64,000 nt of DNA from Promethearchaeota archaeon (GCA_016839555.1 JAEOUA010000006.1:1-64000); one strand, 5' to 3'; counted from the stretch's first letter, positions 28,757 to 34,669 are shown. Made by a program: numbers and translations. The notes: generated by a model from the letters alone, not told the origin.

Positions 28757-29734
28757 TTAAATTCTTAATTTTTTAATTTGAGGAGTATCTAAGATCCTCA
28801 CCTCGAAGCGACAGTGGTCAGATCCCATAGCGTAGCAATCAATCTCTTCTACTGAAATTGGTTGGTTTAGTTTTTTAGTCATAATTTCCGTTAGAATTCC
28901 TTCATCAAATTTACACACAGGTTGACCAATATTGGGCATGTGAGAACATTCAAAGCATTCGTAGACGTTGAAAAAGAGCTTTTTATTTGACTCAAATTGA
29001 ACTTCATCAATTTCTCCAAGTAAATTTCTTTGCCAAAAATCAGCTAATTGGTTTAAGAGTTTATTTAAATCACCCCCTATAAAGAGCGGATGAAGCGTAT
29101 CACCAATATTTACTCCAATATCATAAAGAAGAGCTGCGCCTTCGGGTATTCTGGAATCAATCGAAGTTATAAATGTTTTGAGAATAGTTTTATCTATTTT
29201 ATCGATTGGGATTTCGGAATAATTGTCAACTTTTTCAAGTCCCGTAGTAGGAATTCTTTTAATAAAATTTATTTGGCTAAATTTATTTTTTAGAGAATTA
29301 TATACATCCTTCAGTATTTTTTCAAGAATACCATATTGAATTTTATATTTATTTATTTTTTTTTCTTTTTTCCGAGGACTATAAAAAGCATAATAAATTT
29401 CCGGATAATCTTTTAATTTTTGTTCAAAATTCTGAAAAATATATTCGAGAAATAACGTGTTTATTCCATAAGGTAATATACCTGTTAATAATATCTGCTC
29501 TATATTCCCTCGTGCCAATTTTGAGGGGAATTCTATAAATTTATTTACAAATATCCCTTTTATTTTTCTCTGTATTTCTAATTCAAAAAAAGAATCTGGA
29601 AGGTCAAGGTTCATTAAATTGGTAAGTATTTCCTCCAATATTGAAGGGATTTTTTTGGGAATAGAATGAAATATTCTGGGGCCTTCAATTTGATCGAAAT
29701 AAGTTAAAATCAAATAAATTTGAGAGATTCTCAT
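28757..29734 (-). CDS. uDENN/NPR2-like longin domain fused to a C-terminal V4R domain
   Basis: N-terminal LILTYFDQIEGPRIFHSIP..ARGNIEQILL; C-terminal VYECFEC..PVCKFDEGIL..EEIDCYAMGSDHCRFEV. Confidence 0.75.
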   Translation of the reverse strand: MRISQIYLILTYFDQIEGPRIFHSIPKKIPSILEEILTNLMNLDLPDSFFELEIQRKIKGIFVNKFIEFPSKLARGNIEQILLTGILPYGINTLFLEYIFQNFEQKLKDYPEIYYAFYSPRKKEKKINKYKIQYGILEKILKDVYNSLKNKFSQINFIKRIPTTGLEKVDNYSEIPIDKIDKTILKTFITSIDSRIPEGAALLYDIGVNIGDTLHPLFIGGDLNKLLNQLADFWQRNLLGEIDEVQFESNKKLFFNVYECFECSHMPNIGQPVCKFDEGILTEIMTKKLNQPISVEEIDCYAMGSDHCRFEVRILDTPQIKKLRI

Positions 29735-30877: not shown

Positions 30878-30984
30878 ATATTCTATTATAAAAATTCTTA
30901 ATATTATTTTATTTCTGTTTTATTAATCTAGATAAAAAAAAAAAGATAATTTTTTAATAATAGTCTATATAAATGATGTTTGGA

Positions 30985-31437
30985 TTAATCAATTAATTCC
31001 TTTACATCCGGTTTTTCCATATTTAAAATATTTTTAATATCTTCTTTTATTGATTCATAATATTTTTCCTTTTCCCGAATTGGTTTATTTTTTAATACCT
31101 TAAGATATTTATTGACAAACAATTCCTTAACTTCCTTTAGAAATGGAATAGCACTCTCAAATTTTTTTTGTATATCCACTTTAAAAATAAAAGTATAATC
31201 AGTTTGCTCTTCTTTCATCATATAAAATTTTTTATTACCAATATTAACTATTTTGATTTCATCATAAGTTAATCCCGCTGCAATAGATTTTAATCCCACA
31301 AGAAGATTAGATAATAAAGCTTCATTAACATTAGTCCTACCTTGTTTATAATTTTCAAAAACAATTACCGGTGTTCCTTTTTCATCAATTATGTGAATCC
31401 AATCAATAAAATCCATATTCAGTACAATTTTATCCAT
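30985..31437 (-). CDS. stand-alone longin/roadblock-like protein
   Basis: WIHIIDEKGTPVI, LLSNLLVGLKSIA, strands IKIVNIG/KFYMMK/YTFIFK, helix ending LFVNKY; overlaps the GTPase stop. Confidence 0.75.
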   Translation of the reverse strand: MDKIVLNMDFIDWIHIIDEKGTPVIVFENYKQGRTNVNEALLSNLLVGLKSIAAGLTYDEIKIVNIGNKKFYMMKEEQTDYTFIFKVDIQKKFESAIPFLKEVKELFVNKYLKVLKNKPIREKEKYYESIKEDIKNILNMEKPDVKELID

Positions 31438-31987
31438 TTGTCATTATCATATCTTTTTCAAATACAGAATATATCGTGGTTTTAAATATCTTGTAAGAAA
31501 ATTGGGCAGGGATTATTTTCACTATTTTATCAATTAATTTTCTTTTTACTATTTCATCAATATTTTTAAATTGTTCTTTTTCTCGTATATTAGGGTCAAA
31601 TTTATGCAAGAAGATACATAGCTCTATTTTTTGAATATTATCTTTAATTAAATGGACAATATCCTTAAAATAATTTAATGCGGAATCATAACGATCAATA
31701 TCTTGAACATCAAAAACAAATATAATTTCATTTGTTTTAGTCAAGTATCGATTAAAATTTTCAATATATTCTTTTATATATTGTTTTTGCCCTCCAAAGT
31801 CCCAGACATTTAACTTAATCTCATCGGTATCGAAATTTTTAATACTTATTCCTTTAGTAGGTCTTAAGGAACAATAGGACAATATATTACTTTGTTTACT
31901 CATACTAACTAGTATAGATGTCTTTCCACTATTATCTAGACCCAATATTAATATTTTATACTTTCCAGATCGTTTCATTATTTCCAT
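31430..31987 (-). CDS. small GTPase, Asgard Rag/Gtr-Arf-like
   Basis: G1 GLDNSGKTS, G2 PTKG, G3 WDFGGQ, G4 HKFD, G5 TTIY; HKxD and T(S/T)I are Rag-type. Confidence 0.9.
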   Translation of the reverse strand: MEIMKRSGKYKILILGLDNSGKTSILVSMSKQSNILSYCSLRPTKGISIKNFDTDEIKLNVWDFGGQKQYIKEYIENFNRYLTKTNEIIFVFDVQDIDRYDSALNYFKDIVHLIKDNIQKIELCIFLHKFDPNIREKEQFKNIDEIVKRKLIDKIVKIIPAQFSYKIFKTTIYSVFEKDMIMTNG

Positions 31988-32020
31988 GATTAAATGCCTT
32001 TGTTTTAATTTATTTTTACA

Positions 32021-34378
32021 TTATGATATTTTAGATTCCAATTCAATTGGTTGGAGAATATCTTTTTCTATTAAATTAAAAATGGCTTCAATTTGTTCCG
32101 GTCTAATTTTCTCTTCAGTAAACAAAAAGGATACGAAAAAATAATCTAAATTATTTTGTTTCATAAATCTATTTGCTGAATTAATGATATCCCTTTCAGT
32201 TGAACTAAGTTTTATATCTTCTGGTTCGCTTATTCGAAGTGGAAAGATGAATGCTGTTTTTAAATGTTTTTGTATTACATCATGTAGTCCGACAAATGCT
32301 CTTGTGTCATAAGAATATTTTTCAATTTTTTCTCCATATTTCTCTCCTATTTCATACGATAATTCATTAAGGTTTTTATAAAATTCTTCTGAGGGTTTAT
32401 CACTCATAATAAAAATTAAGCGGAAATTCTTATATTCGGACATAATTACAATTGAATCCTTGTATTCTAATGAAATAGTTTGGGTTTGGTGGCTAGCACC
32501 GGTGAGTTCAATCCCAAAGGAGCGTATAGCGTCTAAAAATCCCGATACTAAGGTGGCATCAACCGCTCTCCCACTATAATGCTCTTCATACACGTTTAAT
32601 CCTGATTCTTTAGAAATCACTATAACATCTTGAAGATTGAGGATATCATATGCTCTATTTTGTTGCTTTTTTCGATAAAGTTCAAGATTTTTTCTGATCT
32701 TGCGAATAACACTGTATGATACAACACTAATTCCAGCTACGCCACTGATAGTGATAAATATAATTGTAAGCAAAAGGGGATCAATCCCTGTAGTGGTAGA
32801 TTCAGGAGGTAAGAAAGTAATACCAGAAACCCCACCACTTATTTGAAAAGCTTGAGTTTGCATTCCCGCATCAGTCTCATTATTCCAAAATACATAGGTA
32901 GTCCACTCCCCATTTCGAGAATTAGTTGGGAGATTATATTGAAATAAGATATCTGATCCAGAGCTTTCATTTGTTTGCGTATGAAATATTATTCCAATTG
33001 GATCAACTAGAATGATGTTACAATTTCCTCCCGGAGGGGGCTTTTCCACAAAAAACCCAAGAAGCTCCCCAGCTTTATATGAAGTTTTACCTTCTGTGTT
33101 GATTGTTAAATTGTATCTTATTGATGTAGCCTCAATTTTCCAAACACTATCATAAAGGATGGTGCTGTTATTAATATATAATGAACCTCCATCATAAGTA
33201 ATACCTGAATCAGAAGTAACATTATCGCCACCTCTAAAAATATTCCTAATATTCCAATGATCTGGGTAATCATAAATTACGGTATAGTTATATCCAAACC
33301 TATCAAGGAATGGATTTAATATCCAAAGATTATCTTGATTTTTTTTAATATAAACAGAACCCACTGAAGTTAAGGTGTGATTTAATTTAATATGATAACT
33401 CACATTAAAAATTAAAGCATCTGAAACGTTATTTTTAATAGGAATAGACCAATTAGAGGTATTTGGGAATAAAGTATAATTGAATGAAATACTTAGATTT
33501 CCAGTACCACTCTTAGATTTATTTAGGATAGGATAATCATTTCCATTAATTTTAGCGGTCATATTTATTTCTAAGGGATAAAAGGTTTCATTTACTCTCT
33601 GAATTAATTTATAAAGAAAAGGTTCACCAGATTTTCCCGATAGCCATTCCCCATTATAAATAGATCTATTTAAATCAGGATATTTGGGATTTTCAGTACA
33701 AGTAGACCAGTAATATTCGGATTTTGGACTCCCTCCAATTGCATCCCCATTAATAATTATAGAATATTTCCCTCTTGAGAGATTTAAGGTGGGATTAAAT
33801 TTCTGCAAATGCCATCCTTCACCAACTGATTTTGTCATATTCAGAGGATTATCGTGAAAAATAGTTCCATTTGGACATCCCTTAATCTCATCATAATACC
33901 CAATTTGGAATCTTATATCTTTATCTTCGGTTGATGAATTTCGTCCATAGATATATATACCATAAATAATCGTTTTAGCATTAATATTCATCTGAACTGC
34001 CAATCTATCATAACCACTGAATTTTGATATTTCTTCTTCATCTATGGGATTATCTTCAATAACCTTAGTTTCATTTATAAAGGTCATATTAGTTATTTCT
34101 AATTCTAATTGTGAAACATTCCATCGTGAAGTATTCAAATCTATATCAACGGAGCTAACATTTTGCATAGTTCCATTATTTTCAGCAATTTCAAGTATCT
34201 GAAAGCTTTGAGTAATATTAAGAGCCTCATTGCTATATAGAATATCAGAGGATTGTGGATCATTAAACGCAGCTTGAATATCGGCATTGGAGCTCATATT
34301 CTGATTTAAAGAAAGACTTAGCATGAAAAGAATGAAAAATCCTACCAAAATATAATATTTTTTCTTAATTTCAATCAC
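32021..34378 (-). CDS. single-pass membrane protein: signal peptide, beta-rich ectodomain, TM, cytoplasmic longin-like domain and winged-helix-like tail
   Basis: Hydrophobic N-terminus, many N-x-S/T sequons, TM LLLTIIFITISGVAGISVVSY followed by RKIRK. Then VIVISKESGLNVY..DATLVSGFLDAIRSFGIEL..LEYKD..FRLIFIM, ending IEAIFNLIEKDILQP. Confidence 0.8.
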   Translation of the reverse strand: MIEIKKKYYILVGFFILFMLSLSLNQNMSSNADIQAAFNDPQSSDILYSNEALNITQSFQILEIAENNGTMQNVSSVDIDLNTSRWNVSQLELEITNMTFINETKVIEDNPIDEEEISKFSGYDRLAVQMNINAKTIIYGIYIYGRNSSTEDKDIRFQIGYYDEIKGCPNGTIFHDNPLNMTKSVGEGWHLQKFNPTLNLSRGKYSIIINGDAIGGSPKSEYYWSTCTENPKYPDLNRSIYNGEWLSGKSGEPFLYKLIQRVNETFYPLEINMTAKINGNDYPILNKSKSGTGNLSISFNYTLFPNTSNWSIPIKNNVSDALIFNVSYHIKLNHTLTSVGSVYIKKNQDNLWILNPFLDRFGYNYTVIYDYPDHWNIRNIFRGGDNVTSDSGITYDGGSLYINNSTILYDSVWKIEATSIRYNLTINTEGKTSYKAGELLGFFVEKPPPGGNCNIILVDPIGIIFHTQTNESSGSDILFQYNLPTNSRNGEWTTYVFWNNETDAGMQTQAFQISGGVSGITFLPPESTTTGIDPLLLTIIFITISGVAGISVVSYSVIRKIRKNLELYRKKQQNRAYDILNLQDVIVISKESGLNVYEEHYSGRAVDATLVSGFLDAIRSFGIELTGASHQTQTISLEYKDSIVIMSEYKNFRLIFIMSDKPSEEFYKNLNELSYEIGEKYGEKIEKYSYDTRAFVGLHDVIQKHLKTAFIFPLRISEPEDIKLSSTERDIINSANRFMKQNNLDYFFVSFLFTEEKIRPEQIEAIFNLIEKDILQPIELESKIS

Positions 34379-34669
34379 GACTTTATGTGTATTGAAATAA
34401 ACCTAATATCTCAAAAGCTATATTCTTAATATAAGATATAATATTCAATAGGTTATTTAAAATTTTTTTTTATATTTATTAATATAAAATACAAAATAGA
34501 TATGGATTGTAGTATTTCTGATTTAATAGTAATTATTATTTGTTTGAAATAAATTTAAAAAAAATCTAAAATAAAATTCTTAAGAGATTTCTCAATGATT
34601 AAAAATTTTTTTTCGAAGTGAAATTTTAGATGAGTTTTATTTTTTAAACTATTTATAAGGCTTTGATAT

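Follow-up and report, generated by a model that had tools for sequence, protein, structure and literature searches.

A longin-tailed surface protein, a Rag/Arf-like GTPase and a free longin encoded side by side in an Asgard archaeon: a candidate membrane-associated small-GTPase module

Introduction

Several described systems bring a small GTPase together with proteins of the longin/roadblock superfamily, and we compare with them here a three-gene locus from a 64,000-nucleotide stretch of DNA of a Loki-type Asgard (Promethearchaeota archaeon; GCA_016839555.1 JAEOUA010000006.1:1-64000; hereafter the window). Its genes, R, G and S, encode a receptor-like membrane protein, a Rag/Arf-like small GTPase and a free longin protein, respectively. 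In eukaryotes, Ragulator-Rag, GATOR1 (NPRL2/NPRL3), FLCN-FNIP/Lst7-Lst4, TRAPP (Bet5/Trs23/sedlin), Mon1-Ccz1 and Fuzzy-Inturned resemble this set in joining two longin units with a Rag/Arf-like GTPase. In bacteria, conservons comprise a sensor histidine kinase (CvnA), a roadblock/MglB protein (CvnB), CvnC and a GTPase (CvnD), and have been described as G-protein-coupled-like regulatory systems (Komatsu 2006 as cited in PMC4316618; PMC13343842; PMC13621833). The MglA-MglB and Group 1 Rup systems share with the locus a small GTPase encoded beside a roadblock-superfamily regulator, and in Rup1 neighbourhoods a membrane protein and a gene for signalling output are found as well (PMC4316618).

Asgard genomes hold dozens of Ras-superfamily GTPases and of longin/roadblock proteins, almost none of which can be matched to a partner, and the way in which the cultured strain's genome is laid out yields no GTPase-partner matches (Tran et al. 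2024, PMC10933270). GTPases fused to longin or roadblock domains have been described in these archaea (Tran et al. 2024, PMC10933270), as have a LAMTOR1-like/Rab-like/DENN operon and fusions of longin domains with two-component modules (Liu et al., 10.1101/2020.10.19.343400). An earlier note on the window read the locus as a candidate transmembrane signalling operon and knew of no functional description of its wiring. Our search of the literature, itself incomplete, turned up no account of an operon in which a longin-tailed single-pass glycoprotein is encoded with a GTPase and a further longin; analogues in bacteria, however, are published (conservons and Group 1 Rup; PMC4316618, PMC13343842), and to that extent the note overstated its case. 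We report here that the three genes recur together in related genomes more often than chance would predict, and we propose that their products work as one module at the membrane.

Results

The three open reading frames (ORFs) lie on the minus strand, as do all features of the locus given below, and are found at exactly the coordinates first proposed for them: R at 32021-34378 (785 aa, from a GTG start codon), G at 31430-31987 (185 aa) and S at 30985-31437 (150 aa). A 33-bp spacer separates R from G, whereas G and S overlap by 8 bp (ATGGATAA). Most homologues of S begin at a position equivalent to Met8 (31416); use of this alternative start would shorten S to 143 aa and thereby turn the overlap into a 13-bp gap. 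The longer N-terminus of S (window 31416-31437), which begins at an ATG overlapping the stop codon of G, is kept in three close homologues (P0005, P0006 and P0009).

The cytoplasmic tail of R (aa 552-785) was modelled by AlphaFold2 with 35 homologues, giving a pLDDT (predicted local distance difference test score) of 83 and a pTM (predicted template modelling score) of 0.77. The predicted order of elements is a long juxtamembrane helix, a beta-beta-alpha-beta-beta-beta-alpha domain and a small strand/three-helix/strand unit. Two independent structure comparisons of this model support a longin fold for the middle domain (aa 581-711, 32246..32638), as the earlier note had supposed. With VIA-align, which does not depend on Foldseek, the tail matched Sec22b (Z 11.9, root-mean-square deviation [rmsd] 3.1, 121 aligned residues), the VAMP7 longin (Z 11.4) and the solved Lokiarchaeal longin 8yqg (Z 10), and every one of the top 50 rows belonged to the longin or roadblock superfamily. 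Foldseek against the PDB likewise returned nearly only longin and roadblock structures, among them Fuzzy, coatomer zeta, AP sigma, Ykt6, SEDL and Sec22b, together with the C-terminal domains of RagA/C, LAMTOR, GATOR1 and Mon1-Ccz1. Alignment of the homologues brought out an invariant motif, LVSGFLDAIRSFGIE, and an invariant arginine (R102 of the tail, R653 of R), which offers a lead, though only a lead, to a catalytic arginine finger, NPRL2 R78 and FLCN R164 being the residues to which it might correspond. A proposed analogy to NPRL2/3 stands as far as the longin fold common to both is concerned, but none of R, G and S matched the Pfam families NPR2, NPR3, FLCN or LAMTOR.

On either side of the longin domain, the tail carries two further predicted elements. 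The juxtamembrane helix (aa 559-580, 32639..32704) runs from the transmembrane (TM) segment straight into the longin, residues 2-29 of the tail being helical in the model at pLDDT 77-90, and has a weak coiled-coil-type match to Pfam Seryl_tRNA_N (E 0.0026). The C-terminal small alpha/beta domain (aa 712-785, 32024..32245), which the earlier note took for a winged-helix (wHTH)-like tail, modelled here at pLDDT 77-94 as one strand, three helices and a further strand, always accompanies the longin domain in homologues, in which query coverage extends to about residue 230. The VIA-align and Foldseek lists for the tail were filled by the longin domain, and searches with aa 700-785 against Pfam at E <= 10 and against the named clusters of the Atlas gave no usable match.

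A second longin is predicted for S (P0003, 30985..31437), whose AlphaFold2 model, built with 21 relatives (pLDDT 80), shows the exact longin topology, beta1-beta2-alpha1-beta3-beta4-beta5-alpha2-alpha3. The first description of S as a free longin/roadblock protein is supported, on the longin side, by VIA-align, where the model matched VAMP7 (Z 12.1, rmsd 3.7, 121 aligned residues), sedlin (Z 11.7) and the Lokiarchaeal longin 8yqg (Z 10.7), and by Foldseek, where Tca17, MP1/LAMTOR3 and VAMP7 were the top matches. The database search found five relatives of S besides itself, and of 41 related genomes 26 have a paralogous family, the profile of which extends to Bet5 at E 0.012. Searches of the PDB and Pfam by sequence gave nothing significant for the R tail or S, and neither matched the Pfam longin families (Longin PF13774, Fuz_longin_1 PF19036 and Clat_adaptor_s) at E <= 1. 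Relatives of S come just under the Fuz_longin_1 cutoff of 26.1, with scores of 25.9 for the S-like protein of locus L083 and 24.1 for a fusion protein of locus L090, the latter scoring 21.9 against Pfam Longin. It is thus the predicted fold, together with distant profile signals, that points to longin membership of both S and the R tail.

Profile comparison further suggests that the two longins of the locus are distant homologues. The longin of the R tail aligned to the S profile by hhalign at E 5e-4 across equivalent elements, one protein of the host genome (G000:C12:41066-41791) matched the profiles of both, and the S profile was also matched by three receptor ORFs. Elsewhere in the host genome, two adjacent genes (G000:C7:303317-305398 and 305901-307922) encode proteins of ~680 aa that each end in an S-like longin domain.

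G (P0002, 31430..31987) scores equally as an Arf and as a Gtr1/RagA protein in Pfam, with 83.2 bits for Arf PF00025 (2.1e-23) and, over residues 11-174, 82.3 bits for Gtr1_RagA PF04670 (4.6e-23; cutoff 22 bits); it also matches SRPRB (3.6e-9). Its motifs are GLDNSGKT (G1), WDFGGQ (G3), HKFD (G4) and TTIY (G5), and G1 to G5 are conserved in 13 relatives, G4 as HK[YF]D and G5 as [ST][ST][IV]Y. The best solved relatives, named by their structure titles, are LokiRagO (8yl2, E 9e-24), in which the motifs HKFDP and TTIY are identical to those of G, and then LokiRagM (8zla/9m28, 4e-21); a literature search for 8YL2, 8ZLA and 9M28 found no relevant paper. The chain stops nine residues past G5 and therefore has no C-terminal roadblock domain, in agreement with the first reading of the motifs and of the missing roadblock, and close relatives are all 171-192 aa long. 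The short N-terminus, MEIMKRSGKYK followed by beta1, is not conserved among relatives, and G has no Gly2, amphipathic N-terminal helix or C-terminal lipidation motif. By its sequence, then, G is Rag-like in its Gtr1_RagA match and its G4 and G5 motifs and Arf-like in its Pfam score and its WDxGGQ switch II, and is neither by accessory features, as it has neither the C-terminal roadblock through which Rag/Gtr proteins form obligate dimers nor the amphipathic N-terminal helix of Arf with its usually myristoylated Gly2. Lacking a membrane anchor of its own, G would need a protein partner in order to act at the membrane. We rejected an MglA/MglB-type reading, as G has a standard DxxGQ switch II along with its Arf and Rag scores, and MglB ranks below longins in the structure comparisons.

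The receptor family to which R belongs is widespread: among 121 genomes of the order, 110 have it, with as many as nine copies per genome, often in tandem. Its tail of longin and C-terminal unit ends proteins of 500-2,200 aa in 88 of 201 genomes of the phylum, and a library of 1.84 billion proteins has it in 531 cluster representatives. Elsewhere, this type of tail is common in giant proteins, up to ~2,250 aa in length, and the host genome encodes a 1887-aa protein (G000:C2:36230-41893) with a region resembling the receptor ectodomain and an internal longin tail (aa 1420-1687).

We examined linkage in 65 informative receptor paralogues of related genomes, counting as a partner any S-family or P0002-like GTPase gene within 1.5 kb downstream. 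Ten of the 65 receptors had an S-family gene and seven a P0002-like GTPase gene within this distance. By order, the downstream partners formed R-G-S at four loci, R-S at another four, R-S-G at one, R-G cut by the contig end at one, and R-S with a convergent Ras-like GTPase at one. The remaining 54 receptors had neither, which means that the operon first described is no property of the receptor family at large. Given the 16 S-family and 19 P0002-like GTPase genes of the 3.74-Mb host genome, our own arithmetic puts the chance rate at ~0.6-0.8% per 1.5-kb window, and the R-G-S arrangement exceeds it.

Conservation of the linkage, on which the earlier note had made its reading depend, was found within one receptor subfamily. 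In a tree of R tails, a single group of 16 rows, to which the R of the window belongs, holds all 14 partner-linked receptors, including two further R-S loci found by way of S, while the other 52 rows are partner-less; 14 of the 16 thus keep S and/or G. Because this group spans four genera with tail identities of ~35-52%, and because flanking genes are not shared, the unit has been kept through rearrangement. The R-G-S order recurs in four genomes (G118, G069, G092 and G094) and, divided between two contig ends, in G010. When the flanks of five triads were compared with the window at a blastp threshold of 1e-10, R, G and S were the only shared genes. R-S without G occurs at the four sampled loci and in two more genomes (G008 and G020), and G-S without R in six (G074, G094:C143, G111, G001, G113 and G005). 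S is therefore the common denominator, the constant partner of both R and G.

The partner-linked loci also showed some variation. At L076 (G094:C220, 7304-11919), a tandem duplication of the GTPase-longin pair behind one receptor gene gives the order R-G-S-G-S. Two receptor-longin pairs, at L080 (G020:C133, 1057-7475) and L078 (G121:C5, 7094-10530), stand beside GTPases that are Ras/Rab-like (PF00071) rather than Rag/Arf-like, two of which lie upstream of the 1605-aa receptor in G020. Partner-less receptors are mostly followed by a convergent gene for a ~195-aa protein with four TM segments (P0191; L019:2249-2833, minus strand, and equivalent ORFs in L021-L040 and L096-L132), which has no Pfam match, and often then by a 4Fe-4S ferredoxin-domain protein gene.

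The relatives of G were next placed by their neighbours. G sits in a clade of ~180-aa GTPases (support 100/98), and its nearest relatives are encoded in R-G-S loci or in G-S pairs. The sister clades of the S-linked GTPases belong to a recurrent operon of an ArsR-type helix-turn-helix (HTH) protein (111 aa), a P0002-like GTPase and a MASE3...HisKA histidine kinase, which was found in at least 13 related genomes (L051-L072, e.g. L058:1-2397) and is a second tie of the GTPase clade to a membrane sensor; a locus of the host genome (G000:C6:197396-197932) is among its occurrences. Among the G-S pairs, those of G074 and G094 lie beside a divergent gene for a 964-aa MASE3-PAS-HisKA-HATPase kinase, that of G113 follows a receiver-domain protein, and that of G005 comes after a polytopic membrane protein of 420 aa, the C-terminus of which can be aligned to the S profile (E 0.0033). 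The REC-domain protein upstream of a G-S pair (P0190) seems by its look to have a longin-like C-terminal half, but gave no match to the S profile by hhalign. With kinases, a receiver protein and a polytopic membrane protein for neighbours, a signalling role for the module is plausible. Relatives of both partners also occur in one chain: an S-like longin precedes an Arf/Ras-like GTPase domain in fusions of ~300 aa in at least 10 relatives and in the host genome (G000:C10:330601-331509), which fits, as Rosetta-stone evidence, with contact between longin and GTPase.

R itself has the sequence features of a type-I surface protein. A short K-rich N-terminus and a hydrophobic signal peptide or anchor occupy aa 1-28 (34295..34378; hydropathy windows aa 7-28), and all the homologues checked start with a basic stretch and a hydrophobic segment. 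For this reason, we preferred the GTG start (34378) over that of the public gene call P0010, a 758-aa protein that begins at an ATG at aa 28 and lacks the hydrophobic N-terminal segment. The ectodomain (aa 29-528, 32795..34294) is rich in N, S, T and G, and the outer part of R (498 aa) contains 29 N-x-S/T sequons against 8.8 +/- 2.6 in shuffled sequences (maximum 18 among 2000), whereas the tail (234 aa) has none, an asymmetry seen equally in nine homologues. A single TM helix (~aa 529-558, 32705..32794; Kyte-Doolittle windows up to 2.49) is followed by a K/R-rich patch, RKIRK, and this patch and the sequon asymmetry argue for an N-out/C-in, type-I topology. With a signal sequence, one TM segment, a positive-inside tail and sequons on the outside only, R is probably an N-glycosylated surface protein, and the single-pass, sequon-rich receptor first described is what we find.

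Ectodomain conservation spans the whole length among homologues (33-44% identity), and the leads to its fold are weak and point to immunoglobulin (Ig)-like and lectin-like families. Pfam searches with 36 homologues gave scattered weak Ig-like matches, with Big_13 and MG2 in two members each. A search of Atlas features with the R ectodomain returned scores of 0.75-0.77, below the usable level, lectin-like and Ig-like clusters being among the matches.

Judged from its spacing, the trio looks like its own transcription unit. The R-G spacer contains no run of five or more T residues. The 291-bp intergenic region 5' of R (34379..34669) is extremely AT-rich, with T-runs and TATA-like tracts, and is probably the operon's own promoter region; its T-runs may also serve as a terminator for the operon of a UvrA-like gene, which lies upstream of R on the same strand beyond this spacer. 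A T11 run 41-51 nt past the stop codon of S (30934..30944) is a candidate archaeal terminator that would end the trio's transcript, and the gene downstream of it, prenyltransferase/cyclase-like, is convergent to the trio.

Two genes away from the triad, the window encodes a 325-aa protein with a C-terminal V4R domain (28757-29734, minus strand; Pfam 2.9e-21). It belongs to a separate co-oriented group that also holds a ferredoxin-domain protein and a PmbA/TldD peptidase, and its position beside the triad was not conserved in the five other genomes checked. Nothing in the flanks of the triad hinted at a defence or mobile-element reading.

Discussion

Taken together, these results lead us to propose, with a probability of roughly 60%, that R, G and S form one membrane-associated small-GTPase module. 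This proposal draws on S being the constant partner, on both longins resembling those of known platforms, and on G having neither an anchor nor a dimerisation domain. In such a module, the TM helix of R would continue as the juxtamembrane helix into the cytoplasmic longin domain, and the tail and S, as a heterodimer or as paired homodimers, would most likely make up a two-lobed longin platform. The platform would dock G and probably set its nucleotide state, as TRAPP, Mon1-Ccz1, Ragulator, GATOR1 and FLCN-FNIP do for their own GTPases. G would be the client switch and, having no lipid anchor, amphipathic helix or roadblock, would reach the membrane only through its protein partners. The module would thereby tie a GTP/GDP switch to one particular surface protein, and information could flow either way: a ligand outside the cell might alter the nucleotide state, or the nucleotide state might alter how the surface protein behaves. 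Physical contact among R, G and S, GEF (guanine-nucleotide exchange factor), GAP (GTPase-activating protein) or scaffold activity, co-transcription and ligand sensing are elements that we infer.

Several observations weigh against this proposal. The 54 partner-less paralogues indicate that the tail can do without a partner encoded next to it and may have other binding partners. Support is moderate for the split by which the partner-linked subfamily is set apart (Shimodaira-Hasegawa-like approximate likelihood ratio test [SH-aLRT] 84), the window's own R tail sits on a long branch, and the 13 S-linked GTPases all group together with weak support (80/86). A shared longin fold does not by itself demonstrate GEF or GAP activity, and it is gene spacing that suggests co-transcription of the trio. 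Finally, according to Tran et al. 2024 (PMC10933270), the cultured relative MK-D1 does not as a rule encode its GTPases in operons together with roadblock or longin proteins.

The full claim of the earlier note is a sub-case of the module with the direction of the signal fixed, and we regard it as possible, though doubtful. It holds that a ligand acting on the glycosylated ectodomain rearranges the platform formed by tail and S, which as a GEF or GAP switches the Rag-like G and so informs effectors. Such a receptor-coupled switch would make sense of a large conserved ectodomain rigidly joined to the longin by a continuous helix, and of a family that, like many sensor families, is diversified and multi-copy, with tandem arrays and as many as nine members in one genome. 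It would also suit the sister GTPases encoded beside membrane sensors (MASE3-PAS histidine kinases) and a receiver protein, and the fusion of Asgard longin domains to two-component modules (Liu et al., 10.1101/2020.10.19.343400). However, the ectodomain searches gave weak Ig- and lectin-like leads and no ligand-binding fold, and no effector of G is apparent within the operon.

Slightly further down the scale, and in our view unlikely, is a service role in which no external signal is involved and G and S act in the insertion, sorting, clustering, protrusion positioning or turnover of R, much as the SRX longin of SR-alpha works with the SR-beta GTPase or as longin adaptors handle cargo. Both longins do match SRX-SRbeta complexes in the structure comparisons (5ck3, 1nrj and 2go5; Z 8.6-10.6), G matches SRPRB, and the longins of AP sigma/mu and coatomer zeta rank high for the R tail. 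The many receptors without G or S of their own would also be expected if a few G/S sets served many cargo-like proteins, but the receptors with linked partners form a subfamily of their own and not a random subset, and the presence of the same GTPase clade beside sensor kinases and a receiver protein speaks for signalling rather than targeting.

More improbable still is a split Rag-like switch in which S replaces the missing C-terminal roadblock/longin of G, while R merely shares the transcription unit and its tail binds some other partner. The G-S pairs without R, in at least six genomes, are what this would predict, and these same genomes commonly encode longin-GTPase and GTPase-roadblock fusions (see also PMC10933270). 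Yet R-S without G also recurs, the G-S pair of G005 follows a different membrane protein that again has a longin-like end, and the subfamily members that keep a partner (14 of 16) do so despite unrelated flanks. That three abundant Asgard families lie side by side by chance, without any functional link, can very nearly be dismissed: although longin, GTPase and receptor-like genes are multi-copy in the host genome (16, 19 and 3-5 matches), by our own arithmetic downstream partners are ~15-25 times commoner than expected, four genera keep the order while their flanks are unrelated, and the genes stand close together (a 33-bp gap and an 8-bp overlap).

The module that we favour offers a matched, testable trio of anchor, second longin and GTPase, and nature provides variants for assay in the R-S only and G-S only loci, the fused longin-GTPases and the kinase-linked sisters. 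If the tail/S pair regulates G, then longin-platform control of Rag/Arf-like switches predates eukaryotes and ran at the plasma membrane with a surface glycoprotein, which would bear on the origin of endomembrane GTPase regulation. Should the switch also prove to be receptor-coupled, it would be a prokaryotic forerunner of Ragulator/GATOR/FLCN-Rag logic, at the cell surface instead of the lysosome. If the pair does not regulate G, a ~500-cluster family of longin-tailed surface proteins still needs explaining.

Among known systems, the solved Asgard proteins are close in their parts and differ in how these are joined. Both longins of the locus match 8yqg (Z 10-10.7), which belongs with the roadblock/longin set of Tran et al. 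2024 (8yqg, 9jue and 7f8m), and LokiRagO (342 aa) and LokiRagM (385 aa) carry a roadblock in the same chain, whereas here the longin has a gene of its own and the GTPase is 185 aa long. The receptor of the signal recognition particle (SRP) likewise pairs the SRX longin of SR-alpha with the Arf-like SR-beta at the membrane (5ck3 and 1nrj); in that case, however, the GTPase is TM-anchored and the longin soluble, while here the longin is anchored and the GTPase soluble, and SRP-related domains are absent from the locus. The MglA-MglB and Group 1 Rup systems differ in that MglB, at Z 8.0 and 8.9, is outranked by longins for both models, that G is not of the MglA type and that the content of the neighbourhoods is different.

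Conservons and eukaryotic platforms come closer. Like a conservon, the locus is a prokaryotic operon in which a sensor-like membrane protein is joined with a member of the roadblock superfamily and a small GTPase of the Ras superfamily. It departs from one in that R lacks a kinase domain and has the longin in its own chain, a CvnC/DUF742 gene is absent, G is Rag/Arf-like with a DxxGQ switch II rather than of MglA group 2, S is a longin rather than an MglB-type roadblock, and the host is an Asgard archaeon. R, G and S had no Pfam match to HisKA, HATPase or DUF742, and we take the trio, by this comparison, to be an analogue of conservons and not a member. With the eukaryotic platforms, it is the structural matches of both longins that fall within the platform proteins, and with the Rags, G shares the Rag-type HKxD (G4) and T-T/S-I-Y/W (G5). 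G differs from Rag in having no roadblock and would thus form no Rag-type dimer by itself, and the locus differs in that one longin is the tail of a single-pass surface glycoprotein, while eukaryotic platforms are peripheral, with lipidated LAMTOR1/Ego1 anchors. By function, the nearest analogues of the proposed module would thus be the longin/roadblock platforms of eukaryotes and the conservons of actinobacteria.

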